Under the pieces are notes generated by a model, which saw only the letters and a list, made by a program, of their open reading frames with translations, was not told where the DNA came from and did no database searches. This document shows positions 12,505 to 51,540 of a DNA stretch of 64,000 nt, piece after piece. The stretch comes from Acidobacteriota bacterium. GTDB lineage: Bacteria > Acidobacteriota > UBA6911 > RPQK01 > JAJDTT01. Numbering within the stretch: the first letter of the stretch is position 1; every line of letters starts with the position of its first letter. The DNA is taken from assembly GCA_965217775.1 (NCBI GenBank), contig CBDCJH010000002.1, positions 832,001 through 896,000 of the forward strand, read 5' to 3'. A program made the position numbers and the translations under genes.

Positions 12505-12594
12505 GATCCTTTCTCCACCACCTGCCGATCGGGCTGAACCTGCCCGACCCGCAATCGCCGCCGATGATACCAAAGCGACCACGGTTTTCGAGTG

Positions 12595-12727: not shown

Positions 12728-12784
12728 AACATACGGGTCGCAAGGTAACGCGTTCACGCCAGCCGCAACGAGGTCATTTCACCA

Positions 12785-25009: not shown

Positions 25010-25169
25010 ACAGCCCGTGGCAAAAGTCATCACGGCATTCGACCGTCCCTGCATCCCGGCGGACGGCGTTGCGATTCGGGCACATACTCCCGGTATGCAC
25101 CCGAATCGCGCCTTGTCCGGCGGGCGCAGGAACGGTCTCGGTGCTCGCGGGACTTTCACCACGGACTGT
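25010..25169 (+). mobile_element. MITE-like element (160 bp)
   Basis: 19-bp imperfect TIR ACAGCCCGTGGCAAAAGTC / GACTTTCACCACGGACTGT (16/19). Internal hairpin GCGATTCGGG..CCCGAATCGC. Second copy at 12595-12727. Confidence 0.8.
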
Positions 25170-31455: not shown

Positions 31456-31585
31456 CCGCCGGCTCGGTCACGGCTGGCGAGACTGCAATTGAACGCCGGC
31501 CGTCGACTCAAGATAAATTCAATTTCGGCACATACTCAGCGACCGGTTGAGAAACTCGAGCTGGACTGGGGTTCCGAGTGAGAAC

Positions 31586-32737: not shown

Positions 32738-32811
32738 CGGTTCGTGGTGAAGGACGGACGCAGCACCAAGACGGCGGTTGGAACACGGTTCGGAACCGGC
32801 GCGGATAGAGC

Positions 32812-33978
32812 GTGATGAAGATCCCCATTCGATACAACTTGCGGAGTCTCTGGGTAAGGCGAGTCGGCACCCTGATGACCGCATTGGGAATTGGGCTCAC
32901 AGTGGCCATTCTAGTCGCGATGATGGCCCTCATCGACGGCCTCGACTCGACCTTCGTCAACACCGGAAACCCCAATGACCTGGTGGTCATTCGGCAAGGC
33001 TCCCAGAACGAGACCAACAGCTATCTGGACCGGAACCTCTTTCCGAAGGTCCGCTTTCTGCCGGAGGTGGCTCGCGACCAGGACGACGAGCCGTGGGCTT
33101 CCGGCGAGCTCATCGTCGTCATCAATCATGAGCGCATCACCGGAGCAGGTGAGACCTCGAACATCGTCGTTCGCGGCACCGGCAACCGGGGCTTCGAAAT
33201 GCGGCCGGAAGTCCGGATCGTCGAGGGACGACGCCATGCAAAAGGGGTGCGGGAACTGATCGTGAGCCGTTCACTGTCGCGCCGCTTCAAGAACATGAAG
33301 CTGGGCGATACCCTGCCCATTGCGCAGAATGAGTGGGCCGTGGTGGGTATTTTCGACGCCGGTGGCACGGCCTACGATTCCGAAATCTGGGGGGACTACG
33401 ACGAGATCGCGTTGGCCTGGAATCGACCGATCTACACCTCTTTCCTGGTGCGCGCCAATAATGCACAGGCTCGAGCGGATCTGGCGAAACGGATCGAGGA
33501 GGATCGGAACATCGAGCTGCAGGCCATCCCCCAAGACGAATACTACGAGGGACAAACGATATCCTCCATTGGAATCAAAGCTCTGGGGATCTTTATCGCT
33601 GTGGTGATGGGAATCGGTTCCTGCTTTGCCGCCATGAACATGATGTACGGTACCGTCATGGCCCGGTTCAAAGAGATTGCAACCCTGCGAGCACTGGGAT
33701 TTCGCAGACGGAGCATCCTGGCATCCTTCCTGGTAGAGTCCGTCCTGTTGGCGTTGCTGGGAGGAGTCGTGGGCTGTGTCATGGCCCTGCCGGTCCACGG
33801 CATTACCACGGGGACCACCAATTTCGCCAGTTTCAGCGAAGTCTTGTTCCATTTTCGAATCACCCCCGAAATCCTTTTCAAAGCGATTCTATTCGTCGGT
33901 TTGGTGGGGATTGCGGGAGGTTTGCTCCCGGCTGCACGAGCCGCCCGGGTGCGCTTGATCGACGTGATGCGAGACTGA
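32812..33978 (+). CDS. MacB/FtsX-like ABC permease
   Basis: EIATLRALGF, PAARAAR. Confidence 0.9.
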   Translation: MMKIPIRYNLRSLWVRRVGTLMTALGIGLTVAILVAMMALIDGLDSTFVNTGNPNDLVVIRQGSQNETNSYLDRNLFPKVRFLPEVARDQDDEPWASGELIVVINHERITGAGETSNIVVRGTGNRGFEMRPEVRIVEGRRHAKGVRELIVSRSLSRRFKNMKLGDTLPIAQNEWAVVGIFDAGGTAYDSEIWGDYDEIALAWNRPIYTSFLVRANNAQARADLAKRIEEDRNIELQAIPQDEYYEGQTISSIGIKALGIFIAVVMGIGSCFAAMNMMYGTVMARFKEIATLRALGFRRRSILASFLVESVLLALLGGVVGCVMALPVHGITTGTTNFASFSEVLFHFRITPEILFKAILFVGLVGIAGGLLPAARAARVRLIDVMRD

Positions 33979-35135
33979 TGGAAAAAGATTTGAAAGCGTT
34001 GCGCATCGACCGCAACCGTCGGCGTTCCAGGCCGTCCCCCAACTTGTGGCTGATCGGACTGGCGGCCTTCCTTGCGGGCGCCGTCCTGACCGCGCTGCTT
34101 TTCCACAACCTTTCCCGGCAGACACCCGATCTGGCTCGGGCCGAAGCCCAGGCGGACCCGGGCGCGGTTGCCGCGGCCGGTGCTGCGGTCGATCGGGCGT
34201 CGGATCGGGACGGACCGTTGCTGATCGTCTCGGGCTACATCGTCCCTCACCACCGGATCGAAGTCAGTTCCCGAATTATGGGGAAGGTCGCTTGGGTCGG
34301 AGTCGATAAATCGGATCGAGTCGAAAAGGGTCAATTGCTGGTCCGGCTGGAGGACGCTGAATTCCAAGCCCAACTCCAGCAGGCAGAAGCCGGTTTTCAC
34401 TCGGCACGGGCCCGCCTCAGCGAACTGGAAACCGGTTCACGGCCCGAAGAGATCGAGATCGCAAAGGCGGAGTTGGAAAGAAGCCGCGCCGAATTCGACA
34501 ACGCCGATCTCGAGTATCGCCGCTTCATCCAACTCATCGAAAGTGGAGTCATCGCTCAACAACGGGTCGACAATGCCCGGTCTCGCCGCGACATGGCCAA
34601 GGCCGCCGTTGCCGTCGCCGAGAAAAACCACCTGCTCCTGGAGATCGGCCCCCGAACCGAGCAGATCCAGGCTGCCCGTGCCGACCTCGAGCGAAGCCAG
34701 GCGGCCATCCGATACGGGCAAACCCAACTGCAGGAGACGGAGATCCGGGCACCCGTCAGCGGGACCATTCTGGAACGGGTCGTTGAAGTCGGTGAAATGG
34801 TCTCGGCCTACTTCATGGGGGGAGCCGTCCTGGTGGCGTTGGCGGATCTGCGAGATTTACAGGCGGAGCTGGATATCAGCCAATCCGATTTTCACAACAT
34901 CTCGCCCGATAACGGGTGCAAGATGTCTCCCATCGCCTATCCGAGGCGGGAATACGAATGTGAGTTGGAAGAGATTGCACCCGAGGCCAACCGGCAGCGA
35001 GCCACGATCCAGGTAAAGGTCCAGATTCTGGAACCGGATGAATACCTTCGGCCGGAGATGGATGTTCAGGTCACTTTCTTTCGCAAACGGACCGCTTCCG
35101 GGGCTGAAGACACGACCGCTGAGGACACGGGATGA
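33978..35135 (+). CDS. Efflux periplasmic adaptor (HlyD/MFP)
   Basis: N-terminal TM, lipoyl half-motifs, coiled coil, IRAPVSG. Confidence 0.9.
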
Positions 35136-35854
35136 TGAAGGTATTGATCGAAATGCGGCATCTGAGCCGGGTGTTCCAGCGCGATACCGTCCAGGTCGTG
35201 GCGCTGAAGGACATCAACCTGGACATCCGTGAAAAGGACTTCATCAGCTTGATGGGACCGTCCGGCTCGGGAAAGAGCACGCTGCTCAACCTGATTGCCG
35301 GCATCGACCGGCCGACCGGCGGCCAACTCCAGGTCCTGGGCGAAGATCTGACCGCCCTCAACGAAGACGAGCTGGCTGCCTGGCGCAATGAACACGTGGG
35401 ATTCGTGTTTCAGCACTTCAACCTGATCCCTGTCCTGACCGCCTTCGAGAACGTCGAACTCCCCTTGCTGCTGACCTCACTCTCCCGGCAGGAACGGCGA
35501 GAGCATGTGGAGACCGCCCTGCGGCTGGTGAACCTCTCGGACCGGATACGCCACTATCCGCGCCAGCTCAGCGGAGGCGAGGAACAGCGGGTAGCCATCG
35601 CCCGTGCAATCGTCACCGATCCCACCTTCATCCTGGCCGACGAACCGACCGGTGACCTGGACGCCGACTCGGCTGGGGACATCCTCAAGGTGCTGGACGC
35701 CCTGAACCGGAGCTTCGGAAAGACCATCGTGATGGTCACCCACGATCCCCGCGCCGCGGCTTTCGCCCGGATCAACCATCATCTGGAAAAAGGGTCCCTG
35801 CTGGGAAAGGCCCCGGCCACGACGCTCCATCCATCCACCGCTGACGGCTTATAG
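35132..35854 (+). CDS. ABC transporter ATP-binding protein (LolD/MacB-like)
   Basis: [26 protein letters not shown]. Confidence 0.93.
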
Positions 35855-35976: not shown

Positions 35977-36238
35977 ATTCTTCCTCCACGTTCCATTCGA
36001 AATTCCAAGTAATCACGAAGACGCTGTTGAGTTTGCCGATTCTGGTTTCCAACGGGCCACTGGACACTCTCGGTCGCGGACTTTTCGTCTGAGAACTTTT
36101 CGAACCACTGAAGGATCGTGATTCCATTGCGGTTCGCTTTCCCGGGTGCGTTGTAGCTTGCTCTCTACATCATGAGAGGAGTGTACAAGTGAGGTGTTAT
36201 CTTGACAGGATTTCCTTATAATCTCCGATTTATATTTC

Positions 36239-38518
36239 CTACACCGGAACCATAAGGCCGTCTTGGAATCTCCGATTGGGGCCGTTGTGTACTGCCATCA
36301 AGAGTTCCTCTGCTAATTCGATCCCTTTTACCTTGTCAATATTCGCATTGCTAATGTCCCAGGACTTGGCTGGCTCAATACAGTTCTGGCAACCCAACGA
36401 GCACTTGCAGTTACGGGCAATCTCAACACCTTTCTTCAGAGCTACATGCCACACGCTAAACAGCTTTTTGGAAACACCGATTCCTCCTGGATAATTCTCG
36501 TAGCAATACGCGGCCAGTTCACTTCCCGTCCGAGAGTAGGTACTCGTGTCGAATCGGTCTGCCGGGATCACGAACATTGCGCCTACACGAATCATGTGCT
36601 CCAAAGCACCAATCCCATCAACGGCGACTACGCTTTGTGGGACATCAATCCAAAACGAGTGCAGGTTGTTCAGAAAAAGGGCGCCTTTGTCGCCCCCAGT
36701 CCTGAGAGTTTCACCAGAACGTTCATCCACTAGCTTAAAGCCTGTGAAGTTCATCACGATATTGAGAGAGCCGTAATAAACGCTAATGTCCCCATAACTG
36801 AAACCATCGAAAAAATCCGACCTCGAAAACACTGGGTAGAATCCTGGCTCGGTTCTCAGATATTGGTCAGTATCTTCAAGAACAATGGCTTGCTCTTCAT
36901 GGGACCTCACGTGATAACGTTGACCGAAGAAAGGGAAAATCGCTCCGATATAGGCCTCACGGAATCGGCGCATAGCAGAAATTTGGCCCAACTCCTGATT
37001 GTTTTTTCTTAGAGTGAAAGACTGCCCAATACCTCCGCGAAGGTTCAGGCGAGGCTGTGGCTTAAAACCCGTAGGCACTGTTCCTTGGTTCTTTCTGGCC
37101 GCACTGAAAAATGGACTGCCAAGTATAGTTTCTTCGGGAGGCAGTACCTGTCCGCCTGTTTCTTCCATAAGCGAGGGAATGTGTTTCGCGATTAGCTCTT
37201 CGTTGGCCGGATCGACCACCAGTTCGTCAAAGGGCTTTTCCAGAAAGGCTTGCAAATTCCCCACGAAGAAACGATCAATCGGGTCATTCATCGCGTAGAA
37301 CAGCACGAAAGCGTCCTTGTCCCAACCTCGTCCAGCCCGGCCAATCTGCTGCCAAGCGGACATTATGCTGGGGGGGAATCCGCCTAATATCACGCCGTCC
37401 AGACCGCCAACGTCCAGTCCTATTTCCAGAGCATTGGTCGTGAATACCACTCGAACCTGACCTGTTTTGATTCGCTCTTGGATTTCCTGGCGCCGCTCGG
37501 GTCTCAAGTCGGCATGGTATGCTGAAATCTGCTCAGGCTCCAAGCCACATTCCGAGGCTGTGCGCCTACAGTTGCTAAAAGCCGCCTCCAGAAATCGCTT
37601 TGTTGGGCAAAACACCAATACTTGTAAGCCTTCCACCAAAGCCGTTATTGAGGCTTGCTCAACTCGCAACCTGAGAATATCCCAATATTTGAAATCAGGG
37701 ATTTCAGGATCAATGAACACGAAATGCCGTTTGGGACGAAGCACATCTCTTGCCGATACCACCTCCGTGTCTCGTCCGGTGAGAGATTCGGCGTGTTCCT
37801 GCGGATTTGCACAAGTGGCGGTGGACAGAAACACCTGGGGGTGTGCTTTGATACGATTTAAATACAAAAAAAATCGCCGCAACAGAAGAGCCATGTTGCT
37901 GCCGAAAAACCCACGATATTCATGCATCTCGTCGATCACGACATACCGTAGATTACGCAGGTATCTAGCGCCGTCGGTATGCTTGTCCCACGACTCCCGA
38001 CTGCCCAGAAATGACATATTTAAGTATTCGGGATTAGTGAGTAGGATGTGGCAAGGATTCTGGCGAAGGCATGCCTTGATTTCTTCTCCCGTATCCCCAT
38101 CATAAGGCCAGGACTCGATGTCGAGTGGTTGGCAAATCTTCCTGATCTGCTCTCGCTGGTCGAAAGCCAACGCCTTCATCGGGTATATCATCATTGCGTG
38201 GGAGCCCGGGTTTTCCTTTAGAACATGAAGCATTGGTGCGGCGAATCCCAGTGTCTTTCCGCTGGCAGTCGGCGACTCCATCACCACATCAGCTCCGCTC
38301 AGGGACTTGGTGATTGCATCGGCCTGATGCTGGTATGGCTGTGATATGCCAATCTGAAGTAATGCACCGCGGACAGCAGGATTGAGTTGGGCTGGCCAAT
38401 CCTTCGCATAGTCGGGTTGAATTCGATCAACTACTTTTCGGTTTATCCTATCGTTGTCCCGTAGCGCGCCAAACTCCTTCAACTTTGACAGGAAGTCGTT
38501 AATGCTGACTCCACTCAT
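36239..38518 (-). CDS. SF2 DEAD/DEAH-box helicase with C-terminal DUF1998-type Zn motif (YprA/SftH/Hrq1-like)
   Basis: PYQHQ, SPTASGKT, YPMKAL, DEMH, TAT, TNALEIGLD, QQIGRAGR, CKCSLGCQNC. Visibly lower GC. GGAGG RBS before ATG 38518. Confidence 0.88.
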   Translation of the reverse strand: MSGVSINDFLSKLKEFGALRDNDRINRKVVDRIQPDYAKDWPAQLNPAVRGALLQIGISQPYQHQADAITKSLSGADVVMESPTASGKTLGFAAPMLHVLKENPGSHAMMIYPMKALAFDQREQIRKICQPLDIESWPYDGDTGEEIKACLRQNPCHILLTNPEYLNMSFLGSRESWDKHTDGARYLRNLRYVVIDEMHEYRGFFGSNMALLLRRFFLYLNRIKAHPQVFLSTATCANPQEHAESLTGRDTEVVSARDVLRPKRHFVFIDPEIPDFKYWDILRLRVEQASITALVEGLQVLVFCPTKRFLEAAFSNCRRTASECGLEPEQISAYHADLRPERRQEIQERIKTGQVRVVFTTNALEIGLDVGGLDGVILGGFPPSIMSAWQQIGRAGRGWDKDAFVLFYAMNDPIDRFFVGNLQAFLEKPFDELVVDPANEELIAKHIPSLMEETGGQVLPPEETILGSPFFSAARKNQGTVPTGFKPQPRLNLRGGIGQSFTLRKNNQELGQISAMRRFREAYIGAIFPFFGQRYHVRSHEEQAIVLEDTDQYLRTEPGFYPVFSRSDFFDGFSYGDISVYYGSLNIVMNFTGFKLVDERSGETLRTGGDKGALFLNNLHSFWIDVPQSVVAVDGIGALEHMIRVGAMFVIPADRFDTSTYSRTGSELAAYCYENYPGGIGVSKKLFSVWHVALKKGVEIARNCKCSLGCQNCIEPAKSWDISNANIDKVKGIELAEELLMAVHNGPNRRFQDGLMVPV

Positions 38519-38709
38519 GTGAACCTCCATAGGTGAGGGCTGATTTCGCGTGCATGTGCGTCAAAAACTCGGTCCCGAGCTTACCAATTGTTACCTCTCT
38601 TGAACAGGAATCGAATTGACTCATAGTAAATCGGCCCGGAACGTATTCTTTGTCTCAAAAAAGAAATCTTCCCGAAATGAATAAAGAAAGGGCTCCAGGA
38701 AAGTGGCCT

Positions 38710-38895
38710 GGGGAGATATTGGAGATATGGGAACGGCGGGTTCTGGTGAAGGAGTTTGCGGCGCAATATCGGAGAGCAGGCATGAAGGAAAAGGGGAAGA
38801 TCCTGGACCGGTTTGTGAAGGCGACGAACTGCCGCCGCCACGACGCGTCTTGGCTCCTTCACAACCACGGTCGGCGGGGCAGGTTGAGGTCGGGA
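38710..38895 (+). pseudogene. N-terminal fragment of an rve/integrase-domain transposase
   Basis: ERRVLVKEFAAQYRRAGMKEKGKILDRFVKATNCRRHDASWLL resembles the N-terminus of such transposases; runs into the truncated CRISPR repeat. Confidence 0.6.
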
Positions 38896-40127
38896 GGGCG
38901 GGGAACACAAGGGAATCGACAAGGGGCTGCGGAACCAGTGCGGTCCATCCCCGCGTAGGCGGGGAACACGCAGGCACAGGATCTTCCGGTTCTCCGAACA
39001 TCGGTCCATCCCCGCGTAGGCGGGGAACACTCCAGCTTCAGCTTCTTCAGCTTCTCCTTCAACGGTCCATCCCCGCGTAGGCGGGGAACACCGGATCCCC
39101 CCGCTTTGCGTTCTGGTCGCAGGCGGTCCATCCCCGCGTAGGCGGGGAACACTCCGTCGTCTCGTCCTGGGCCTGGCGCTGCAACGGTCCATCCCCGCGT
39201 AGGCGGGGAACACGACTCCCGCGAACAGGTGGAGCTGGGCGTATCCGGTCCATCCCCGCGTAGGCGGGGAACACCCTATAATCGGGGGTGGCGGGGGGGC
39301 GTAGGTCGGTCCATCCCCGCGTAGGCGGGGAACACGATATCGAGATCATCCTCCCCAGCGACCACACCGGTCCATCCCCGCGTAGGCGGGGAACACCGAT
39401 GTCGTCTTTGTCCACTCCGACGGTCCATCGGTCCATCCCCGCGTAGGCGGGGAACACTCAACTCGCTCGACCAGGATCTCAGCGACGACCGGTCCATCCC
39501 CGCGTAGGCGGGGAACACAACAGTCGTCCAAGACCTAGCTGAACTTCAACGGTCCATCCCCGCGTAGGCGGGGAACACTGCTGGGGGAATATCCAGTACA
39601 GCGTCGACGTCGGTCCATCCCCGCGTAGGCGGGGAACACGTGGAGAATCATCGTGACGAGGAACTGGTGCCCGGTCCATCCCCGCGTAGGCGGGGAACAC
39701 ATCCAGACCAGTGCATCTCGTAGCACCGGCGTCGGTCCATCCCCGCGTAGGCGGGGAACACGTTCTTTCCGTCGAGGTAGGTGACGCCGAACACGGTCCA
39801 TCCCCGCGTAGGCGGGGAACACGACTTCAGCGAGAGCGCCCGCGCCAATTCGTCCGGTCCATCCCCGCGTAGGCGGGGAACACCCTCTCCTCGCTCTCAG
39901 GTTCGCCACTCGATACGGTCCATCCCCGCGTAGGCGGGGAACACCCGTCCAGAAGAGCTCGCACAGCGTCCAGATCCGGTCCATCCCCGCGTAGGCGGGG
40001 AACACTGCAATCGGACAGATTCCTCCTGGTCAGGGAGCGGTCCATCCCCGCGTAGGCGGGGAACACTCCTCAGTTCAAAGTACTCACGAACAGTTCAACG
40101 GTCCATCCCCGCGTAGGCGGGGAACAC
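38896..40127 (-). CRISPR. Type I-E CRISPR array: 20 full 29-bp repeats + 1 truncated trailer repeat, 20 spacers (32 bp; one 31 bp)
   Basis: Repeat GTGTTCCCCGCCTACGCGGGGATGGACCG, 61-bp period. First full copy 38941-38969, last 40099-40127, partial 38896-38908. Confidence 0.98.
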
Positions 40128-40214
40128 TCTTGTTACAATCGTCTGATTCTAAAAGACTTGGTCCCAGTTAAAAAAGGTACCAACTCAGATGGGGTTATTT
40201 CGATCCGAACCACT
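40128..40214 (-). promoter_or_regulatory. CRISPR leader with IHF-like site
   Basis: AT-rich, between cas2 and the first repeat. AATCAGACGATTG (40148-40136) is 1 mismatch from WATCAANNNNTTR. Confidence 0.75.
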
Positions 40215-41427
<1,213 letters not shown>

Positions 41428-41431
41428 AGCT

Positions 41432-42142
41432 TCAGGCCCTGCGGATCAGCATCAACCCGCACCCAAATGACTTCGCCCGGCCCAAACCCCTGGCGAGGGC
41501 TGTGACGAAAGTACCGGGCTCCGTTACGGTCAGGATCCCTTTCAAATCGATTAAACCCAACGTGATGCGGTTTCGTCCGCCACGGGGAATACGACGAACC
41601 GAGTAGTTTTCAACTAGTATCTGCTCTACGAGAAATCCTTTGCTCTTTCCTTGGGCAGCTAGCCAGTCGTTTGCGACTTGACCCGCGACCTCCATCCGTA
41701 GGCCGGCCCGTGCGCTGACCGGATTACTGACATTGGTATTCTGACTTCGTGCTCTGTGTAAAGCATCCATGACGAGATCGACGCGCCGGTTGGGCTTGCG
41801 GCCGTTCTTGTCTTGCAGCACTCGGCGGTCCTTAGTCGCGTTCGCACGTAGGATAAAAGACAGGCGGTCACCAGGGGCCAATACCGGTGCGAAATCCGTC
41901 GTTTCCAGGGGCTGAAACACACCTGATTGAGTGGGCGCTCGACGTGAGAGTATGAAAAAGCGCCCGCTCCCGTCGGCCCGCCAAAGGAAGTCGCGAACCT
42001 TGTCCTTGCCTGGAAACAGTGTCCAGATCAGGCGGTGATGCGCGTCGAGCGCCCGGTTGAGATCGGCTGGATCCAAAAGAGGGGCGAGTGCCGCCATTCC
42101 TGCGTCTCGATCCAAAACAGCACGGGTCAGATAAAGGTTCAT
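41432..42142 (-). CDS. cas6e: Cas6e/Cse3
   Basis: HRLIWTLF, FLWR, LRAN, GLGRAKSFGCGLM. Confidence 0.95.
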   Translation of the reverse strand: MNLYLTRAVLDRDAGMAALAPLLDPADLNRALDAHHRLIWTLFPGKDKVRDFLWRADGSGRFFILSRRAPTQSGVFQPLETTDFAPVLAPGDRLSFILRANATKDRRVLQDKNGRKPNRRVDLVMDALHRARSQNTNVSNPVSARAGLRMEVAGQVANDWLAAQGKSKGFLVEQILVENYSVRRIPRGGRNRITLGLIDLKGILTVTEPGTFVTALARGLGRAKSFGCGLMLIRRA

Positions 42143-42834
42143 GTACTCGTATCGAGATCGAAGCGCCAGACTTCAGCTTGTCCAAAATGCCATTTGACTC
42201 GATCCACCGGTTCAACGGGTAGGATCTCAATTTGGTCCGGGCTTTCTCCAGGGAACGGGTCGCATGTCACGGCGCCCGGAGAAGTGCGACGGAGCCAGGA
42301 TGGGGGAGAGACAGAAGTTAACGCGGCCACCGGATTCGGCGCGTCTATAAGGACTGGTTTCATTGGTGCCGCCAGCGGACAGGATTTTCGCCCCAGATAG
42401 AGCACGAACATCGGCCGCCGTAAGGCCATTGCAAGTTTCCGCAGAGGCCACCGTCCATTCTCACGCCACACCACGACGGCAAAAGCCACGTCTGTGCGGT
42501 AGTCGCGTAGCGTGATGATTGTATTGGGAACGTGCTCAAGTTCCTCGAATGCGGCGCGGCGGCTGTCAGGGTGTTTGATCTTCGACGGAATCGTCTGGAC
42601 GGTGTGATAATCGCGCAGTGGCAAGCTCTCCGTCAGCGGGCGAACACCGACACGGTAGTTTAGTAATTCGGCCTGCCGGTCAGAATCTGTCCGTTCAATG
42701 CCCAATGCAGCGCCAAGTAATCCGAGAATTGCGGAACGTGATGGAACAATATCCGAGCCGCGTCGTTCCTGACCCGCATAGGTCCCGAAAGCTCCCATTG
42801 GGCCACACAGGATGAAAACGAGATGCTCATTCAT
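42139..42834 (-). CDS. cas5: Cas5e
   Basis: GPMGAFG, PSRSAILGLLGAALGI, DYHT, YLGRKSCP. Confidence 0.95.
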   Translation of the reverse strand: MNEHLVFILCGPMGAFGTYAGQERRGSDIVPSRSAILGLLGAALGIERTDSDRQAELLNYRVGVRPLTESLPLRDYHTVQTIPSKIKHPDSRRAAFEELEHVPNTIITLRDYRTDVAFAVVVWRENGRWPLRKLAMALRRPMFVLYLGRKSCPLAAPMKPVLIDAPNPVAALTSVSPPSWLRRTSPGAVTCDPFPGESPDQIEILPVEPVDRVKWHFGQAEVWRFDLDTST

Positions 42835-43897
42835 CTGATATCTGCCCTGATGCAAAGGCCTTGATCGTGCGCAGGTCTCCGTTTCGGCTCTCTACGTTCA
42901 TGATTTTGAATTCTCTCGCTTGTGGACCGTATGCGTCGTCGATTTTCTCTGCCATCGTTTCGAGTGCCACGACGGACGCCCGCATCAGATCGCTTCCTGT
43001 TACCGGCTTGAGAAATGCAGCCGCAAGGCTGCGAGGTTGGATCTGTCCTGCCTCGGCACGGATATATCCCGCACGTACATGATGATTGTAGCTGTTGCGC
43101 TTTCCGGACGGGCTCGACGTCGCGAACGCTTCCACTGCTGCCTCTATGGCTTGGCGTGCCAGAGCGCGGTCACCGTTGAGGTTTCTTACCAAGAGGCTCG
43201 TGTCGATGCAGGTGTAGAGGTAATAAACGCCTGAACCAAATCCGGCATCTCCTACGAAGCCCGCGCCCATGTCCTCTGCGGGCCGGCTCAGATCATCGAC
43301 CGCAGTGTAGTAGTCATCCTCGACAACGGCTCTGTGGGTCGTGATCGCATGCGAAACTTGTACTGCCGCTTCGCGATTGAAATTGGGGTCGTCCGCGAGC
43401 ATCCGACCGAACATGGCCACATCAACAGCGCCGTCTGCGGTGCGCAGTATGACTTGGTTGAGTTTGTCCGGCTTGGCTTCTCCGGCTAGCATCCTGTTCG
43501 CCCAATCGATCGCTGCCGCGCGCTCTTCCGGCGAAACGAACGCAAGCTGGCGGATACGAATGTGGGCGGGATTTTTCTTGATCGCCGCCTTATCCAATTT
43601 GCCGAAAATGGCAGCGACGGTTTGAGCGATCTTGCGCGCCTTGCTTTCGGACGCGCCCTTTCCCAGGAGATGTTTGCAGACTTCTTCTCCGATGCGTCGG
43701 GTGCGTTCGCCCATATGTCCCTGTAGCTCCCTCTTCATCGCATCTGACAGGCGTGCTGCGCGTTTGATCGATTGTGAAGACAAACGGAGGCGCGGTATGC
43801 CGCCGTAGATAGCAGTTTTCGGGCGACCCTGATCGTCACGGTTCGGATTGGACGGTGGATACACAGTCAGGAAATGTAACTGAATGAAACAGGTCAT
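42827..43897 (-). CDS. cas7: Cas7/Cse4
   Basis: NPNRDDQGRPK, SSQSIKR, AMFGRM, DYYTAVDD. Confidence 0.96.
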   Translation of the reverse strand: MTCFIQLHFLTVYPPSNPNRDDQGRPKTAIYGGIPRLRLSSQSIKRAARLSDAMKRELQGHMGERTRRIGEEVCKHLLGKGASESKARKIAQTVAAIFGKLDKAAIKKNPAHIRIRQLAFVSPEERAAAIDWANRMLAGEAKPDKLNQVILRTADGAVDVAMFGRMLADDPNFNREAAVQVSHAITTHRAVVEDDYYTAVDDLSRPAEDMGAGFVGDAGFGSGVYYLYTCIDTSLLVRNLNGDRALARQAIEAAVEAFATSSPSGKRNSYNHHVRAGYIRAEAGQIQPRSLAAAFLKPVTGSDLMRASVVALETMAEKIDDAYGPQAREFKIMNVESRNGDLRTIKAFASGQISDE

Positions 43898-44421
43898 GAG
43901 TCGATCTCCAGTGAAATCCGTTTGGGGGCTGCGTCAGTGGCACCGAAATACTGGAAGCACCATGCCGTGCGGGTACCCTCGTTCCAGTGATAGAGGTCGT
44001 TGCCCAGAGCACTGACATTGACAGGAGTCCGTCGAACGATGGACATGGCCCTGCGTAGCGGGCGGATGAGATCCGCCTGAGTGGTCGTTTGGATGAGGTT
44101 CTGAAAGCGCATTTCGCTCAATGCACGGGGGCTGTTCCTGGATTCGCGCCGGCCCAAGACCGTAGCGAGTCTTGGGCGTCCGTCTTCCGTGACGCGAGCC
44201 AGCACGATGGCGACGAGCGCCAAGCGATCTGCCCGCGGGTGATAACCAGCCGACCGAAGCCGCCCGTTGAGGTCATGCGTAGCCTCGACGGTTAGCGCCT
44301 CCGCGGGGGTGGCGCAGCGACGAAATCGGGCGCGGGTCATACGTGCAGTACCGTCATCTGCATTGAACGTATGCCACCACCAGTCTGCGCAGACCATACC
44401 CGGGGATTTCTTGTCCCTCAT
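43894..44421 (-). CDS. cse2: Cas11/Cse2
   Basis: RARFRRC, LSEMRFQNL, position in the Cascade operon. Confidence 0.9.
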   Translation of the reverse strand: MRDKKSPGMVCADWWWHTFNADDGTARMTRARFRRCATPAEALTVEATHDLNGRLRSAGYHPRADRLALVAIVLARVTEDGRPRLATVLGRRESRNSPRALSEMRFQNLIQTTTQADLIRPLRRAMSIVRRTPVNVSALGNDLYHWNEGTRTAWCFQYFGATDAAPKRISLEIDS

Positions 44422-45902
44422 TTGCCGGTCTCCGTTACTTTCGCGTCCAGATTAAGCGTTCGTCGGATGGGGCCGGTGGTAAACGCAGACAGCAGCTTCT
44501 TCCGTGCGTTCACGATTTTCTCAATGTCAGCCGCGCTACGATCGACCAGTGATGGAACGGCATGGAGGTCGAACAACTCTAGTGCTGTCCGCCGCAGGGT
44601 ATTCAGCCACTGCTCTTCAACCTCCGTTCCGTTTGGCATCGGTGCCGCCTTCGTAGCGTTGACAAAGTCGGACTCAGTTGTGGCAAAAAAGGTTTCCGAA
44701 ACAGTCTCAACGGCGTTGCCCTTCATTCCGACCGACGTTCTCAATAGCCTTTTCAATGTGCTGGCTGCGGCGTTGGCGGCCTCAACCAGCGCGCCCACGA
44801 GGAGTTCCGTATTCTGGTCCGATGGAAAAGTCGGGTATACGTGCAGGCTGAAATCCCTGGCTTGCATATTCTTCGTCGCCCAGCCTCCAGCGAAAACCTC
44901 GGTGGCCGGTGGGTTGTAAAGAGAATTGAACCGATGGATCGATGTTGCGACTACACGGGTCTCGTTGCTTTCTCCAAAGGTGAGTCCCAGCCAGTTGCGG
45001 TAGCTCACCTTGCCTGGCTGCGCAAGTTGTGGAAGGAATTCATCACCGACTTTTTTTCGATAATAGGGCGACAGCGGATGTTTCCAACCGTGGTAGTTGG
45101 TTCCGTGTCGCTTCTGCACGACTCCGGTCATCTTGTTCGCCTTGAACAGTAGCCGCAGCCGTCTGGGCATTCCGAAGAATGCTTCGGCGGAGTGGGACAT
45201 ACCTGGAGTTGCGAGTTCGCCTTTTGATGATGTCCGGGTTTTGCGTAGCCACGGCAATGCTTCGCTCGCTCGCTCGGCCGGGAGCGGCGCTCCTTCCGGT
45301 ACGTTGCACCAGACCATCCGCCAAAGTGCATGCGCGTCTGCGTCGACGGGTTGCACCAACGTCACCAAGGGGCCGCCACCACGCATCGAGGTGCGATTTC
45401 CCGCTCCGCCGGTGGGTGCGAAGTCTTGAAGTGCGTAGAGCGCCATTGCCGCTAACGGGAGGGGTAAGTTGGTGTATCGATCACGCTTGACCGTCAAGTC
45501 GGCATTTTTTTTCTTTGTGAGTTCTCCTGCACCGTCGATGAACAGCATGTCCGGTGGTTTGATCGCACTCGGTTTCGCCCCGACCTCAAATGGTTCCATG
45601 TCCTGCAGGAAGCGGGGACCATCTCCGGTCAGCTCGAAGTGCGGCGTGAAGGGTTTGAGGGCGCAACGTAAGCGGCCCGGATCGGGCGTTTCGTAGCGCT
45701 CATGCCAGTCGGCGTCGTGACACGGGGGATCGGCGAGGAACACCAATCCGATTAGCAGTTCGAGGCAGGCAAGGTTCAGATCGCCCCGGGGCCAGTCGAG
45801 GCGGACGACCCCTTCTCTCGCAATCTCGTCTGGCCGAAGCGTGATCCGCCCTCCATCCCGGATTGCGGGGATCCATCGGTCGCTGATGAGATTAAGGGGC
45901 AT
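44418..45902 (-). CDS. cse1: Cas8e/Cse1
   Basis: NLISDRWIP, FLQD, GGAGNRTSMRGGGP, FFGMPRR, HPLSPY. Confidence 0.94.
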   Translation of the reverse strand: MPLNLISDRWIPAIRDGGRITLRPDEIAREGVVRLDWPRGDLNLACLELLIGLVFLADPPCHDADWHERYETPDPGRLRCALKPFTPHFELTGDGPRFLQDMEPFEVGAKPSAIKPPDMLFIDGAGELTKKKNADLTVKRDRYTNLPLPLAAMALYALQDFAPTGGAGNRTSMRGGGPLVTLVQPVDADAHALWRMVWCNVPEGAPLPAERASEALPWLRKTRTSSKGELATPGMSHSAEAFFGMPRRLRLLFKANKMTGVVQKRHGTNYHGWKHPLSPYYRKKVGDEFLPQLAQPGKVSYRNWLGLTFGESNETRVVATSIHRFNSLYNPPATEVFAGGWATKNMQARDFSLHVYPTFPSDQNTELLVGALVEAANAAASTLKRLLRTSVGMKGNAVETVSETFFATTESDFVNATKAAPMPNGTEVEEQWLNTLRRTALELFDLHAVPSLVDRSAADIEKIVNARKKLLSAFTTGPIRRTLNLDAKVTETGK

Positions 45903-45923
45903 CTTGGCCTACGGCTTCTGTAT

Positions 45924-46034
45924 AAAAGAAGTCCGTTCATTCGGACGCAATTACTATCGGAATACGTCTCGCTGCTGGGCGATACATACTACGGAGTGCG
46001 CGTAGAACCACCATCGATCTCCGCGATAGTCGGG
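45924..46034 (-). other. Degenerate CRISPR-repeat-like units plus hairpin/U-tract (candidate crRNA-like regulatory RNA)
   Basis: 46034-46011 matches the repeat at 18/24 positions with one gap. 46011-45980 has the repeat architecture (GTGGTTC, stem, ATGTATCG). Hairpin GTCCG-N6-CGGAC-TTCTTTT about 33 nt downstream. Confidence 0.4.
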
Positions 46035-46143
46035 TTGTTTTCGACACGTCACAGTCAGAGATCCCAATCTAAGGAGACGACCATACAGGGATGCTCTGTC
46101 AACTTTCACGACATGGTGAGTAGATTCACACGACCGGGACATT

Positions 46144-48678
46144 TCACGTCGAAAACATCAGTCCCCATTCGGGATCGTATCGCACTCCTTCGCAGACCAG
46201 GCCATCCTCGCCTACGGGGCAGAGGACGAGGTGATCGCGCTTCCCCTTTGACCACGCGGCCTTGATCTCGGCGATCTCAGGCTCCGATTGATCGGGCAAC
46301 TCGACGGGGCGGAGGCGTCGGCCAGCGCAGCGCACTTCCGAAAGTACCCAGGCGCTCACCGATGTCTCCGCATCGCACCAGGGTGACAGCCGGTGGGCCT
46401 TTCGGCGGGCCAGGACCAACGTTTTCTCTTCTTCGCCAAGGCGAGTAGGAAACTTTTCCTCGCTCCAGACCCTGCCCTTTGTGCCTTTGAGGTAGCCGTC
46501 GTCCGGGATTACCACGTTCTGTTGAGCTATTGCGGACTCAGCGAGCGCCCTACCCTCGGCGTCAAAGAGCGCGTTGGTGAGTGGCTCCGGTACTTCCAGC
46601 GGATTTGAGCCGTGAACGGACTCGATCAGAGTCCTCAGTTTTTCGGGCGAGTTGATCGTGCCGGCGTCGAACACGGACCGAGCGGTTCGCCACTGATGGT
46701 CGTGCCGGTAGACGTAGGCACCTTTGCAGAGCACCCGATTGAGCCAGCGAGCATCTGTCACCCTGTCTGGATCGGGAGAAAGGATTACCAGCTCTGGACC
46801 AGGCACCGGGCGGGCTGTAATGGGGCGCCGGTCCATGTGACGCCAGAGCCGACCTGTACGCTGGATCAACGCGCCGATCGGCGCGAGGTCTGACACCACC
46901 AGATCGAAGTCCAGGTCCAGCGACGTCTCGACAACCTGTGTGGCTACCAGCACTCGACCCCCACGACCGATCCCGTCCCGCCCGAATCGGGCCATCGCCG
47001 CGGCCTCGTGTCGGAGACGGTCTCCAAGGACGAAGCGGGCGTGTAACAAGCTGGCCGGGCAGCCTTGATCATGGAGACTCTTGACCGCGGTGATAGCGTC
47101 ATCGACGGCGTTACGAACCCATAAGCAGGCCGCGCCTGCCTCGGCGCCTTTCACCAGCATTTCGATCGCGACCTCCTCGGAGTCGATCCGCGTGACGCGA
47201 ACGGAGCGACAGGTAGTCGGTACGGGCTCAACAGAGCGAGTTCGGATTTCCGTACCGACAAGGGCGAGCGCCGGGTAGTCTTTGTGGCTCAAGTGGACCG
47301 CCGGCCGACCCATTCCGCTGCGGAATGCCTGAGCGTACGCTTGTCTCATCCTCATCGGTAAAGTCGCCGTCATGACGATCGCAGAACCGCCGCTCATCGC
47401 CTGCATCTTGAGCAGCATTTCGAGTTGGCACTGCATATACGGGTCGTAGGTGTGCGCTTCGTCCACGATTAGAATTCGGTCCACCAATCCAAACAATCTC
47501 AACGTGGCAAATCGCGTCGGCAGGATGCCCATGAGCGCTTGATCAATGGTTCCCACTCCGATCTCCGCTAGCAGCGAACGACGGCGGTCATCTGCGAGCC
47601 ACCGCGTGCAACCGGCCTCAGGGGTCGCGTCGTCTCCGGCACCGATAAGAGCGCGGAAACCTTCATGCAGCGCTGCTCGACCATGAGCCAGAGTCAACGA
47701 GGGAGGAGCCTCGAAGAGGCGCGCCGCCACTTTAGTCATCCGCTCAAACATGGCATTTGCCGTGGCCATCGTTGGTAGCGCGAAGAAAATGCCGCGCGCG
47801 CGCCCCAAAGCAATCATCCGATGCGCAAGGATCAGCGCGGCTTCGGTTTTTCCGGAGCCTGTCGTGTCCTCGATTAGAGCGAGGACAGGACCGTCAGGAA
47901 GAATGACGCTTTCTGTAGCGGACTGCATAGGCCGCAGATCCGGTAGGTGCGTCAGAGTCTGGGCGTTAATCCCCAAAGACACCGAGACGGTGTCCAGTCC
48001 GGCCTTCGCCACCGCCTTTTCGGCTTGGGCGCGCGCGCACTCCAGATAGTCTGCCGGGACGATGTCTGACGAGGCGGGAGGGAACCAATCCGTGTTCGAC
48101 CCCACCCAGTCCGATGCAACGGTAAGCCCGGAAAGCGCCCAACTCAGTCTCCGTGCGCCACGCTGGTCCATTCCCGCCAGTGATCCGCCCGGCAGTAGTT
48201 TGAGGAGGAGCGACGTCCACACCGATGCGGCTTTCGTCGCCGCATATCCGATGGCGTTCCTACGTCTTTGTATCTTCCGCCGATTGTTCGATCGATCCGG
48301 TGGGCCACCGTGGTGCCCGGACACGGCAGCATACAATTCACTTCTCGTGTAGCCGTCGCCACCGAGTGCCCGGCCAATGATCGGGTCGAGCACCGTTGTC
48401 AGTAGCAGGTCCGACAAAGTCCAGTGGCGATACGCGCTTGGACCTTGGTCACGAAGCATCGCGCGGAATGTCTGGGATAGTTTGCCCACGTCGTGCAGCG
48501 CAACCAATACAACCAATCCGCGTCGCTGGGAGGATGACAACCTGGAAAAAGCCCGGTGACCGTCGATCAGACGCTCGGCGCAGGCGGCGACATCCAGCAT
48601 ATGCCAGATGGCGGGATGTTCGCGGGGCTTGCTCTTACCTGGCCAGTCGCGGGCCAGCGAAAAAGAGTCTTCGATCAT
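46144..48678 (-). CDS. cas3: Cas3 HD nuclease/helicase
   Basis: HMLDV, HDVGK, GHHG, TGSGKTEA, DEAH, QRTGRLWRH. Confidence 0.97.
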   Translation of the reverse strand: MIEDSFSLARDWPGKSKPREHPAIWHMLDVAACAERLIDGHRAFSRLSSSQRRGLVVLVALHDVGKLSQTFRAMLRDQGPSAYRHWTLSDLLLTTVLDPIIGRALGGDGYTRSELYAAVSGHHGGPPDRSNNRRKIQRRRNAIGYAATKAASVWTSLLLKLLPGGSLAGMDQRGARRLSWALSGLTVASDWVGSNTDWFPPASSDIVPADYLECARAQAEKAVAKAGLDTVSVSLGINAQTLTHLPDLRPMQSATESVILPDGPVLALIEDTTGSGKTEAALILAHRMIALGRARGIFFALPTMATANAMFERMTKVAARLFEAPPSLTLAHGRAALHEGFRALIGAGDDATPEAGCTRWLADDRRRSLLAEIGVGTIDQALMGILPTRFATLRLFGLVDRILIVDEAHTYDPYMQCQLEMLLKMQAMSGGSAIVMTATLPMRMRQAYAQAFRSGMGRPAVHLSHKDYPALALVGTEIRTRSVEPVPTTCRSVRVTRIDSEEVAIEMLVKGAEAGAACLWVRNAVDDAITAVKSLHDQGCPASLLHARFVLGDRLRHEAAAMARFGRDGIGRGGRVLVATQVVETSLDLDFDLVVSDLAPIGALIQRTGRLWRHMDRRPITARPVPGPELVILSPDPDRVTDARWLNRVLCKGAYVYRHDHQWRTARSVFDAGTINSPEKLRTLIESVHGSNPLEVPEPLTNALFDAEGRALAESAIAQQNVVIPDDGYLKGTKGRVWSEEKFPTRLGEEEKTLVLARRKAHRLSPWCDAETSVSAWVLSEVRCAGRRLRPVELPDQSEPEIAEIKAAWSKGKRDHLVLCPVGEDGLVCEGVRYDPEWGLMFST

Positions 48679-48825
48679 TTCGGGTCTTCCTGATCAGGCG
48701 GACGCTCTCCATCCTCAGTCGTTCGATTCGTTTCCGAGGCCGATGGGTGAGGTTGGCGATAGTGCTTTTGCCTGAAAGGGAATCAACACTTGGTATAGAT
48801 TTCACAGGGCAGGAACGCCGGAACT

Positions 48826-49824
48826 TCAGGTCAGCATGCGGAGGAACATCGCAACGCGTTCCAACTTCTCGACCTCGTTTGGGTCCAGGCCGTCAGGTGC
48901 AAAATGCATCACCTCGTTTCGCATCTCCCTCACTTGGCCCAAATTGTGTGTGAAGGTGGCGCGGTCCACTCGCAATCCCAACCTGTCCCATCGATCCGGG
49001 TTTTCAAGGAGTCGGCAATAGGTGCCGAAGTTGAGGTCCCAGGAGCCCTCTATCGGTGTGCTCGGATCATCGGACGCCTCCGCCATCTCTTCGAGAGTGA
49101 ATTTGCTCACGAGATTACGCAGATGAAGCTCGATTTCGCCTATGACCAGGAACGGTTGGGCAAGCTGCGCGAACTGTCTGGCGAAATCGCTTGCCGTCAC
49201 GATTCCTGAGATGGTCCGGTCGACGTCTCGCACCAGAACGTATCCATGTTCCCAGATGTCCTTGATCGCATTGAACAAGGGTGCGTTGATGGCTATTTCC
49301 CGATGAGGCTCCATCCAGTGGCGGACCTCGTCGCTCTGGCATCCTAGCGTGAACGCCGTTCCGATCGACCGCCAACTGACCACGCCCTTCACGTCGCGTT
49401 CGTTTGCCATCACGGGGAGCTGCGAGAAATCCTCGATCAGCATGATCGTCGTCGCCTTGGCGAGCGGGTTGTTCGGCCGCACGCTGGTCAGTTTGCAGCG
49501 GGCTGTCGGAAGTACGCGGATACGCACGGTCGGATCGACCGGCTCTTTCCGGACGTCCGTCGCCTCCATGTCCAGCTCGATCGAGATGTCGCCGTCGATA
49601 TGCTCGCGCTCGAAATCGGGGACCGTGCGTAGATTCAGTTCCGCGAATTTGGTCCTGATCCGCCGGATAAGCCTGTCGCTTCGGCGCGCGTAATTGAACC
49701 AACCCAGAAGCTCGCGGACCGTCGTGGGTTCCGCAACAGGCATAGCCCCACTATCCCGTTCGGCTTTCATCCTGTCTGCGAGTTTTTGAAGTTTCTCGTC
49801 AGCTTGATAGGGCATCTCTCTCAT
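48826..49824 (-). CDS. CBS-pair + C-terminal HEPN-like (Swt1-type) fusion protein
   Basis: CBS motifs FSQLPV..VKGVVSW and VLVRD..ISGIVTASD. Helical C-domain with EIELHLR and RNEVMH (Rx4H). Confidence 0.8.
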   Translation of the reverse strand: MREMPYQADEKLQKLADRMKAERDSGAMPVAEPTTVRELLGWFNYARRSDRLIRRIRTKFAELNLRTVPDFEREHIDGDISIELDMEATDVRKEPVDPTVRIRVLPTARCKLTSVRPNNPLAKATTIMLIEDFSQLPVMANERDVKGVVSWRSIGTAFTLGCQSDEVRHWMEPHREIAINAPLFNAIKDIWEHGYVLVRDVDRTISGIVTASDFARQFAQLAQPFLVIGEIELHLRNLVSKFTLEEMAEASDDPSTPIEGSWDLNFGTYCRLLENPDRWDRLGLRVDRATFTHNLGQVREMRNEVMHFAPDGLDPNEVEKLERVAMFLRMLT

Positions 49825-49860
49825 TCCACAAATGTTGTTGAATCGGGCCGGACCTTCAAA

Positions 49861-51540
49861 TCAAAACCCCGGAGGTCGCCGGGAGTGATGGTCGGTGACC
49901 TGCTGGTAGGCTTGGCCCAGGGCCAGGATCCGGGACTCGTCGAAGAGTCGCCCGGTCACGGTGATGCTGGTGGGACGGCCCTCGGGGTCGAACCCATTGG
50001 GCAGGCAGAGGCTGGGGAGCCCCGTCAGGTTGGTGAGCCGCACATTCTGGCTGAAGCTGGGGGCCAGGTAGGCGTCGATCCCGGACATCAGGCGGGCCAT
50101 GTCCTCCATGAGCAATGAGCGCAGCCGGTTGGCCTGAATGTACTCGACGGCCGGAACGAAGCGGGCCTGACGGAACATGTTGGGCCAGTTGTTCTCCTCC
50201 TGTTCCCTCAACAGGTCGTCCTGGTTGTTCCGCGTGAACTCGTCGAAGGCCGCCGCCGCCTCGGTGTAGAGAATCAGCTCCGGCGCGAGAGGACGCTTCG
50301 GCAGCTCGATGGGGACCAGGTCGACCCCCAGGGATCGGAAGACCTCCAGGCTCCGGGCATCGTTCTCCTTGGCGGCTGCTTCCTCCTGTTCCTGAAAGGG
50401 GCTCTCGGCGTAGCCTACCCGGAGCCCCTCCAAATTGTCTCCGACGGGCCACACGAAGGGACGATCGCAGGTGGTCCGGTCGTGGGGATCGAGTCCATGG
50501 ATGGCGGCGAACACCAGGGCGCAGTCTTCGGCGCTGCGGCAGATGGGACCGAGCTTGTCCAGGCTCCAGCTCAGGGTCATGGCGCCGTGACGGCTGACCC
50601 GTCCGAAAGTCGGTCTCAGGCCCGTGACTCCGCAGGTGGCGGAAGGATAGACGATGGACCCCATGGTCTCGGATCCGATGGAGAAACCCACCAGGCCGGT
50701 GGCCGTCGCCGCGGCCGAACCGGCTGATGACCCCTTCGAGCCTTCGTCCAGCTTCCAAGGGTTGCGGGTCTGCCCGCCGTACCAGACGTCGACTGCGGCC
50801 AGAGCCCCCAGGCTGAGCTTGGCGATCAGCACCGCGCCCGCGTCCTCCAGCATGCGGACCACGGTGGCGTCCAGGTCCAGGGTCTGGTCGCGATGGGAGG
50901 TGGCTCCCCAGGTGGTTCGATATCCTCGGACCGCCAACAGATCCTTGGCGCCCCACGGGATTCCGTGGAGCGGCCCCCGGTAGCGTCCACGAGCCAGCTC
51001 CCGGTCGGCGCGGCGCGCCTGTTCCAGGGCCAACTCCTCGGTGTAGGAGATGACGCATTCGAGCTTTTCGGCGTATTTCCTGAGGCGCTCCAGATAGAGG
51101 CGGGTCAGTTCCACGGAGCTCACTTTCCGGGCCTTGACCGCCGGCGCCAGACGGGAGAGGGGCCAATAGGCCAGATCCTCCGGACGGCCGGGAACGTCAG
51201 GGATCGGAGACGAGAGTTTGGCCGCTGTCCCGGCGGGCGGTTGCGGCACGCTCCCGCGGGGAATGGGATCGAACTGGATGGCGGGAGGCACCGAATTGTC
51301 CAGAGAGAACTCCCGGAGGTTTCCGAAGAACTCCAGGCTCTGATTGACCCGCTTGAGCATCTGCTCCCGTTCGGGGAGCGTGAAATCCAGGCCGATGACC
51401 TGTTGGGCCGCTTGCAGAATTTCCGCGGTGATTCTCATCTCCGTGTCCACGGGAGACTCCTCCCGGCAGGAAGCCAGAACCAGGCCGCTTCCCGAAAGGG
51501 AGGTGAGCGCCTGCCTGCGCGTCCACTTGGAGTCACTCAC
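49861..51540 (-). CDS. Amidase-signature family enzyme, Tat/lipoprotein-like N-terminus
   Basis: GPLHGIPWGAKDL, GSSAGS, GSETMGSI; TRRQAL..LASC. Confidence 0.92.
   Translation of the reverse strand: MSDSKWTRRQALTSLSGSGLVLASCREESPVDTEMRITAEILQAAQQVIGLDFTLPEREQMLKRVNQSLEFFGNLREFSLDNSVPPAIQFDPIPRGSVPQPPAGTAAKLSSPIPDVPGRPEDLAYWPLSRLAPAVKARKVSSVELTRLYLERLRKYAEKLECVISYTEELALEQARRADRELARGRYRGPLHGIPWGAKDLLAVRGYRTTWGATSHRDQTLDLDATVVRMLEDAGAVLIAKLSLGALAAVDVWYGGQTRNPWKLDEGSKGSSAGSAAATATGLVGFSIGSETMGSIVYPSATCGVTGLRPTFGRVSRHGAMTLSWSLDKLGPICRSAEDCALVFAAIHGLDPHDRTTCDRPFVWPVGDNLEGLRVGYAESPFQEQEEAAAKENDARSLEVFRSLGVDLVPIELPKRPLAPELILYTEAAAAFDEFTRNNQDDLLREQEENNWPNMFRQARFVPAVEYIQANRLRSLLMEDMARLMSGIDAYLAPSFSQNVRLTNLTGLPSLCLPNGFDPEGRPTSITVTGRLFDESRILALGQAYQQVTDHHSRRPPGF

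Follow-up and report, generated by a model that had tools for sequence, protein, structure and literature searches.

A DS-11-family CBS-HEPN gene upstream of a type I-E cas operon in an Acidobacteriota genome, probably a stand-alone anti-phage gene

Phage defence by a single protein in which a CBS pair is fused to a HEPN domain has been described for DS-11 of Escherichia coli, a one-protein system validated in the DefensePredictor study (PMC13092281; statements taken from this paper refer here and below to excerpts of it, and the same holds for PMC3710099). According to these excerpts, the substitution Y157A in the CBS part abolishes defence, the HEPN catalytic mutants R330A and H335A (as given in the strain list) lose it, and a dimer with ATP has been predicted with AlphaFold 3, Y157 being the proposed adenine contact. 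It is also stated there that DefensePredictor systems are often found outside defence islands. CBS-HEPN fusions had been noted in 2013 by Anantharaman et al. (PMC3710099), and a search for CBS-HEPN in the full-text literature from 2022 on found the DS-11 study as the sole related work, next to one paper on an unrelated subject. We describe here a gene of this architecture located at positions 48826 to 49824 (minus strand) of a stretch of 64,000 nucleotides from an Acidobacteriota bacterium (GenBank assembly GCA_965217775.1, contig CBDCJH010000002.1, positions 832,001 to 896,000), which is referred to as the window and provides the numbering used throughout. The gene lies directly upstream of cas3, and the original prediction, made from the sequence of the window, took its product for a nucleotide-gated RNase ancillary to a type I-E CRISPR-Cas system. 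The accompanying statement that no CBS-HEPN protein of this kind had been characterised is out of date, as such fusions were noted in 2013 (PMC3710099) and DS-11 has been validated by mutagenesis (PMC13092281).

We estimate at about 85% the probability that the product of this gene is a DS-11-family protein that works as a stand-alone, single-protein anti-phage system, independent of the adjacent type I-E operon. The protein scores 336.7 bits against the NCBIfam equivalog NF053863 "DS11_antiphage" (CBS domain-containing anti-phage protein), for which the cut-off is 260, with residues 37-328 aligning to positions 1-305 of the 305 profile positions; it is the single copy above this cut-off in the 6.43-Mb genome. 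The E. coli protein WP_000257686.1, named "CBS domain-containing anti-phage protein" in RefSeq, has the accession given for DS-11 in the supplement of PMC13092281. Its open reading frame (ORF) reaches 404.9 bits on the same model, and it shares 37% identity with the window protein over 360 columns (BLASTP, E 3e-75). Residues R302 and H307 of the window protein align exactly with the catalytic R330 and H335 of E. coli DS-11, and Y157 (DYSQLPVM) aligns with F133 (DFSQLPVM), so that the aromatic ring is retained at this position and the hydroxyl is gone. An adenine-nucleotide-gated RNase acting in phage defence, as had been proposed from the sequence, accords with the DS-11 report (PMC13092281) and with a score above the NF053863 cut-off.

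The features of the locus are listed below with their coordinates in the window and the evidence on which each is based.

48826..49824, minus strand: DS-11-family gene (CBS pair plus HEPN); ORF, NCBIfam NF053863 and alignment with E. coli DS-11.
49537..49824, minus strand: N-terminal domain, residues 1-96; AlphaFold 2 (AF2) model and conservation.
49159..49536, minus strand: tandem CBS (Bateman) module, residues ~97-222; Pfam, Foldseek and VIA.
49426..49428, minus strand: codon of F133, the counterpart of Y157 in E. coli DS-11; pairwise alignment.
48829..49158, minus strand: helical C-terminal domain, residues ~223-332, probably HEPN; domain model of residues 211-332, VIA and Pfam.
48904..48921, minus strand: Rx4H catalytic motif RNEVMH, R302 to H307; conservation and alignment with R330/H335.
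48679..48825, minus strand: spacer of 147 bp from the DS-11 stop codon to the cas3 start codon, with synteny breakpoints; blastn synteny.
36077..48696, minus strand: indel of ~12.7 kb with a DEAD/DEAH-MZB helicase gene, a CRISPR array and the type I-E cas operon; blastn synteny breaks; a neighbour, outside the DS-11 system.

The ORF is intact and encodes 332 aa (the coordinates include the stop codon); as most close homologs are called at 329 aa, Met4 (49815) is a possible alternative start. ORF calls bear out that it has the same orientation as cas3 (46144-48678, 844 aa) and is separated from it by 147 bp. Also borne out are the positions of the two motifs noted in the C-terminal part, EIELHLR (residues 230-236) and the intact Rx4H motif RNEVMH (residues 302-307, 48921-48904). 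R302, N303, H307, E230, E232 and R236 show no variation across 39 homologs with identities of 46-95%. As the DS-11 protein has 521 homologs at E<=1e-3, and 536 homolog loci were confirmed among species-representative genomes, the ORF and its motifs are far beyond chance. The homologs come from Acidobacteriota, Dehalococcoidia/Chloroflexota, Alphaproteobacteria, Pseudomonadales, Cyanobacteria, Nitrospira and haloarchaeal replicons. From the 536 confirmed relatives a neighbourhood set of 80 loci was taken, with up to 10 kb per side, and a greedy longest-ORF caller was used for its ORFs, which returned the DS-11 ORF itself in 76 of the 80. The Rx4H motif is present in 75 of these 76 ORFs, and the column of Y157/F133 holds F in 41, Y in 31 and is unmatched in four. 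In a Dehalococcoidia homolog (L064, 10001-10780) the ORF has 271 aa, matches residues 7-264 and lacks the Rx4H region, and it may be a decayed copy.

A tblastn search of plasmid records gave ten matches. Two lie on very large replicons, including a 4.9-Mb E. coli record filed as a plasmid; this record carries a 365-aa ORF (L085:8004-9101), and 129 of 5426 complete E. coli genomes contain DNA identical to it, which RefSeq annotates as WP_000257686.1. The same type of search with the DS-11 protein against phage records gave no match.

The full-length AF2 model, built from a 39-sequence alignment, has a predicted local distance difference test (pLDDT) of 90.5 and a predicted template-modelling score (pTM) of 0.57. 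Pfam recognises CBS in two stretches (E 1.7e-8), residues ~97-222 match solved CBS pairs in Foldseek (E 2.4e-7 and weaker, TMt ~0.8), and in VIA the CBS module superimposes on 2rc3 with Z 16.3 and a root-mean-square deviation (rmsd) of 1.9 over 120 aligned positions, together with dozens more CBS matches with Z up to 16.6. As Foldseek and VIA on the full model gave CBS matches alone, the C-domain was folded by itself. The resulting model (residues 211-332, 42 sequences) is all-helical, with pLDDT 91.7 and pTM 0.86, and its top VIA rows are HEPN proteins: 2hsb ranks first with Z 7.8 and rmsd 2.8 over 94 aligned positions, ahead of Csm6 (three entries), AbiF, the HEPN toxins 8xdj and 7ae2, sacsin HEPN, Swt1 and Cas13bt3. 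Z values below 8 lie under the caution level of the tool for helical bundles, among which such values can arise. Pfam HEPN_Swt1 weakly matches 16 of the 42 homolog C-domains (best E 7e-4), and the Atlas search with the C-domain gave sub-threshold leads, with 0.78 for a cluster that has HEPN_Swt1 on 23% of its members. Taken together, the VIA rows of the model, the HEPN_Swt1 matches and the invariant Rx4H motif favour a HEPN fold. The original reading of the domains as a CBS pair followed by an Rx4H HEPN domain therefore stands, clearly for the CBS pair and with modest support for the HEPN fold. The N-terminal domain (~96 residues) is modelled with helices and strands, its AF2 pLDDT being mostly 86-96, and R48, L65 and D70 are invariant in it; residues 1-96 matched no Pfam family and no Atlas cluster. 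No CARF or SAVED match was found for the protein in Pfam, NCBIfam or PADLOC, its sensor being the CBS pair.

The protein is predicted to form a homodimer, with a score of 0.50 versus 0.01 for the best of three controls; in the calibration, 20 of 30 proteins solved as one-chain pairs attained 0.50, as did one of 23 solved as single chains. The dimer runs showed at least 66% contact agreement and a partner pLDDT of at least 78. The predicted interface is symmetric and comprises the CBS module, the long helix 210-237 leading into the HEPN domain, and residues 306 and 325-329 beside the catalytic His.

For the mechanism we follow the model of the family, which is the best supported. E. coli DS-11 defends as a single gene and needs Y157, R330 and H335. 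According to this model, two copies of the protein would pair symmetrically, with contacts made by the CBS (Bateman) modules and by the first long HEPN helix. An adenine-containing ligand, appearing or changing upon infection, would bind the Bateman cleft, at which F133 would be the counterpart of Y157, and its binding would rearrange the two HEPN domains such that the composite Rx4H RNase site of R302/H307 becomes active. Cleavage of RNA would then stop translation and block phage production, probably through growth arrest or abortive infection. In this model the DS-11 gene would act apart from the type I-E operon, a separate cassette at the variable site downstream. Our inferences extend to the identity of the ligand, to whether its binding activates the enzyme or relieves an inhibition, to the RNA that is cut, to an abortive outcome, to what the N-domain does and to activity in the host organism.

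Next to the gene, the product of cas3 passes the NCBIfam cut-offs of the Cas3 HD and helicase domain models, with the full-length cas3 model below its cut-off, and PADLOC assigns it to Cas3e with 620 bits. cas3 is trailed by cse1, cse2, cas7, cas5, cas6e, cas1 and cas2, all of which exceed NCBIfam equivalog cut-offs, and the operon, which extends to 40215, is a complete type I-E operon. Comparison with related Acidobacteriota separates the two elements. In all seven close relatives (83-97% protein identity) the ORF is intact with RNEVMH and the DS-11 ORF lies directly downstream of the same amidase gene, and the cas operon is absent. In six of the seven, homology to the window ends 7-37 bp past the DS-11 stop codon (window 48789-48819), and it resumes at window ~36076, before an efflux operon of the MacB/HlyD/ABC type; blastn synteny breaks against loci L005-L010 are placed at ~36076 and ~48697/48790. 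Since homology to the relatives stops and resumes in this way, the ~12.7 kb of the window lying between these points is an indel. In L006, homology extends to 48598, so that the spacer is kept together with ~80 nt from the start of cas3, and this remnant suggests that the cassette may once have been present there and was later deleted with DS-11 retained. At the same site L005 carries a different insert (8.8 kb), which encodes transposases of the DDE_3 and IS1595 types and includes a 1357-aa ORF without a Pfam family, and in L008 just ~80 bp are found at the site. Given such differing contents in the window, L005, L006 and L008 (L005-L011 being compared), the site downstream of DS-11 is a variable hotspot.

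The spacer itself was also inspected for signals. A consensus scan of 48400-50200 gave no promoter-like and two terminator-like sites, 1.6 being expected from shuffles; one terminator-like site, 49884-49867 (minus strand), overlaps the end of the amidase gene. Within the spacer (48679-48825) the scan finds neither a sigma-70-like promoter nor a terminator-like site, a result that is uninformative for a non-model phylum. Contigs from RNA libraries (four of four runs, from two studies) cover parts of the ORF with 90-99% likeness; such libraries may contain DNA, and contigs of this kind cannot demonstrate transcription. The spacer is bridged by no contig of these four runs. In two runs of one study (X1 and X2), the match of the cas3 contig stops at 48697 and the DS-11 contig begins at 48792, both ends being loose and the likeness ~95%. 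As 48697 and 48792 are also synteny breaks, against L006 and against L005, L007 and L010, the ~95 bp between them seem to be a genome-specific junction. The contig ends point to a strain with a differing sequence at this place, rather than to transcript ends.

Regarding the genes that accompany DS-11 elsewhere, clustering of the 743 ORFs located up to 5 kb from the 80 homologs gave 619 groups; the biggest group, a class-III aminotransferase, occurs at 10 of the 80 loci with varying offsets and strands. No partner gene is conserved across the 80 loci, as expected for a one-gene system.

The proposal that type I-E uses the CBS-HEPN protein as an ancillary effector, a back-up suicide device triggered by Cas3- or Cascade-linked products, by imbalance or by inhibition of Cascade, draws on the orientation shared with cas3 147 bp downstream, on a spacer in which no terminator-like site was found by the scan, and on the L006 remnant, where spacer and cas3 start beside DS-11 make the adjacency older than the split of at least two lineages. 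Against it stands what is found around the homologs. When the eight Cas proteins of the window were searched by tblastn against the 80 homolog loci (+-10 kb), no cas gene was detected except the 27-aa N-terminal cas3 remnant of L006, so that the survey for enrichment beside cas3 that had been suggested gave a cas operon at none of the 80 loci. None of the 308 ORFs closest to the homologs (at most two per side of each) matched a PADLOC Cas model, with a library that strongly recognises Cas3e, Cas7e and Cas1e of the window as a positive control. Cas7e (TIGR01869) is absent from four of the five genomes of close relatives searched (three being single-chromosome records), and in the fifth it lies ~1.76 Mb from DS-11. 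All seven close relatives retain an intact gene despite loss or absence of the operon, synteny breakpoints fall within the spacer, and the gene of E. coli DS-11, a one-protein system (PMC13092281), has a tyrosine-recombinase gene on one side and an IS3 insertion-sequence remnant on the other, and within 10 kb of it there is no cas gene. By these sequence comparisons the ancillary role is largely refuted, and we give it very little credence; judged in the same way, DS-11 is to be regarded as a chance neighbour of CRISPR-Cas that does not belong to it. A functional coupling of DS-11 and the operon in this lineage, despite independent origins, could take the form of read-through that drives or modulates cas3 expression, conceivable because the 147-bp spacer has no recognisable terminator or promoter, or of nucleotides released through degradation by Cas3 feeding the CBS pair, which would make a two-layer defence locus, and we hold such a coupling to be very unlikely. 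In a weaker form of this idea, the DS-11 gene may be the fixed edge of a hotspot for defence genes and mobile elements which has received the helicase and the CRISPR-Cas cassette.

Apart from CRISPR-Cas, the protein could be a housekeeping or stress RNase, in which a CBS-gated HEPN domain tunes RNA stability to adenylate or energy status with no dedicated phage role in this lineage. Such a role was proposed for CBS-HEPN fusions in the 2013 HEPN survey (PMC3710099), and it agrees with the vertical conservation beside the amidase gene in the Acidobacteriota clade (7/7), with recurrent neighbours elsewhere such as the class-III aminotransferase (10 loci), an ABC ATPase and a major facilitator superfamily transporter, and with the 60 of 80 loci that have no PADLOC match in the nearest ORFs. 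We consider it unlikely, since the validated family member defends against phage and requires both domains (PMC13092281), and the window protein exceeds the cut-off of an NCBIfam equivalog. Moreover, the gene is distributed unevenly, with 129 of 5426 E. coli genomes carrying it at a site rich in mobile elements, the neighbourhoods of distant homologs are almost never conserved, such systems lie outside defence islands according to the excerpts of PMC13092281, and the site downstream of the gene is a variable hotspot of mobile elements. That same hotspot, with the transposases of L005, and the presence of HepT/MntA HEPN toxins among the structural neighbours are what could be cited for an addiction-type or selfish toxin, whose HEPN domain would be restrained by its own CBS domain and would stabilise the adjacent variable region without sensing phage. 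The clustering of the 80 loci shows no conserved antitoxin-like partner, the gene is fixed while the adjacent region varies, and the tested family member confers phage defence (PMC13092281), all of which makes this explanation extremely improbable.

Several observations weigh against the stand-alone anti-phage function that we favour. Identity to the validated E. coli protein is just 37%, and DS-11 activity in Acidobacteriota would be carried over from it by analogy. Because F133 has lost the hydroxyl, ligand binding could differ from that of E. coli DS-11. Among the close relatives, synteny with the amidase gene is stable and the flanks are housekeeping genes, an arrangement that would fit a cellular role in RNA turnover as well. 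The C-domain gave nothing in Foldseek against the PDB at E<=1e-3, HepT toxins and Csm6 being among the weak rows, a profile search of PDB sequences returned a chance match alone (E 1.2), and with all Z values below 8 the VIA support for the HEPN fold is modest. The AlphaFold and Foldseek check suggested in the original prediction was thus positive for the CBS pair (E ~2e-7) and negative for the C-domain, for which HEPN proteins appeared as the top VIA rows, with Z up to 7.8. As CBS-pair dimers are abundant among solved structures, the dimer prediction may partly reflect memory, and the dimer job was unlike its calibration in having its own alignment and ATP included. The window protein has no match in PADLOC 2023, because that library predates DS-11. 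Finally, a PADLOC match (E<=1e-8) among the nearest two or fewer ORFs per side occurs at 20 of the 80 loci, several matches being generic, a count from which we claim neither enrichment of defence genes nor its absence. About 12 of the 20 look specific by our own judgement; the specific-looking neighbours are PDC-S37/Hhe, a type IIG restriction-modification enzyme, a DndB-like protein, PDC-M41B, PDC-S02/S03/S11/S26, mad2 and a reverse transcriptase-protease-like protein, and an example of the generic ones is "mad3/mad8" in L008-L010 and in the window, which is an ABC-transporter ATPase.

Other elements of the window deserve mention. Between the CRISPR array and the efflux operon there is a helicase gene (36239-38530, minus strand; 763 aa) with DEAD/DEAH and C-terminal MrfA-type zinc-binding (MZB) domains, partial PADLOC matches to SngC (141 bits), BrxH and DruE, and a GC content of 0.505 (whole window, 0.613). 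This gene may serve in defence on its own account or may have travelled with the CRISPR-Cas cassette. The CRISPR array (38941-40006) has a 61-bp period and a repeat of ~29 nt starting CGGTCCATCCCCGC, and the ORFs listed over it (e.g., 39535-40005) are array artefacts. The efflux operon (31547-35854, plus strand) consists of a MacB/FtsX permease (two genes), HlyD and an ABC ATPase; the PADLOC assignments of its ATPase to "mad3/mad8" (99.5 bits) and of one permease to "CARF_m8--CARF_LolE_TM" reflect generic domains and are false positives as regards defence. At 12589-12729 and 25010-25169 the window carries a repeat (~140-160 bp) that also matches rearrangement junctions of L007 and L008 with 95-97.5% identity in both orientations and could represent a small mobile or repetitive element.

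The annotation of the gene thus shifts from a candidate novel type I-E accessory to a DS-11-family stand-alone defence gene. The ORF adds to DS-11 a member from a new phylum with 37% identity, and it is neither a new kind of system nor a CRISPR accessory. To the published picture we add that the family is widespread well past E. coli, that it has no conserved partner and usually lies away from recognisable defence islands, that roughly every second homolog examined has F at the Y157 position, and that a conserved N-terminal domain of ~95 aa is present. The gating adenine ligand and the RNA that is cut are questions of the whole family, not of this locus.

Compared with E. coli DS-11, the window protein has the same arrangement of N-domain, CBS pair and Rx4H C-domain (probably HEPN), the catalytic R and H are conserved, both are encoded by a single gene and a homodimer is predicted for both. 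The E. coli protein is longer (365 aa vs 332 aa) because the linker from N-domain to CBS is shorter here, it has Y157 in place of F133, and identity is 37%; its gene is found in an integrase/IS island, whereas the window gene is chromosomal in Acidobacteriota and stably syntenic with the amidase gene. With the type III CARF-HEPN proteins (Csm6/Csx1) it shares the fusion of a nucleotide sensor to a dimeric Rx4H HEPN RNase, dimer, HEPN fold and RNase activity being predicted in our case, and Csm6 is among the structural neighbours of the C-domain (6tug, Z 7.0; 4rgp, Z 6.9; 8jbc, Z 5.9). The sensor is CARF in those proteins and a CBS pair here, and linkage to cas is missing here; to our knowledge, type I-E makes no cyclic-oligoadenylate messenger. 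HepT/MntA and Swt1-like HEPN proteins resemble the C-domain, itself probably a minimal helical HEPN domain with Rx4H (8xdj, Z 6.5; 7ae2, Z 5.7; 4pqz, Swt1, Z 5.5). In contrast to HepT/MntA, no MNT-type antitoxin is a neighbour of the gene, and regulation presumably takes place in cis via the fused CBS pair. The CBS sensors CbpB/DarB, AMPK gamma and CNNM/CorC share the Bateman fold (Z 12-16), with a weak NCBIfam match of the window protein to CbpB (24.4 bits, cut-off 125). They differ in that they regulate enzymes or transporters or bind partner proteins, and none of them is fused to a HEPN nuclease.

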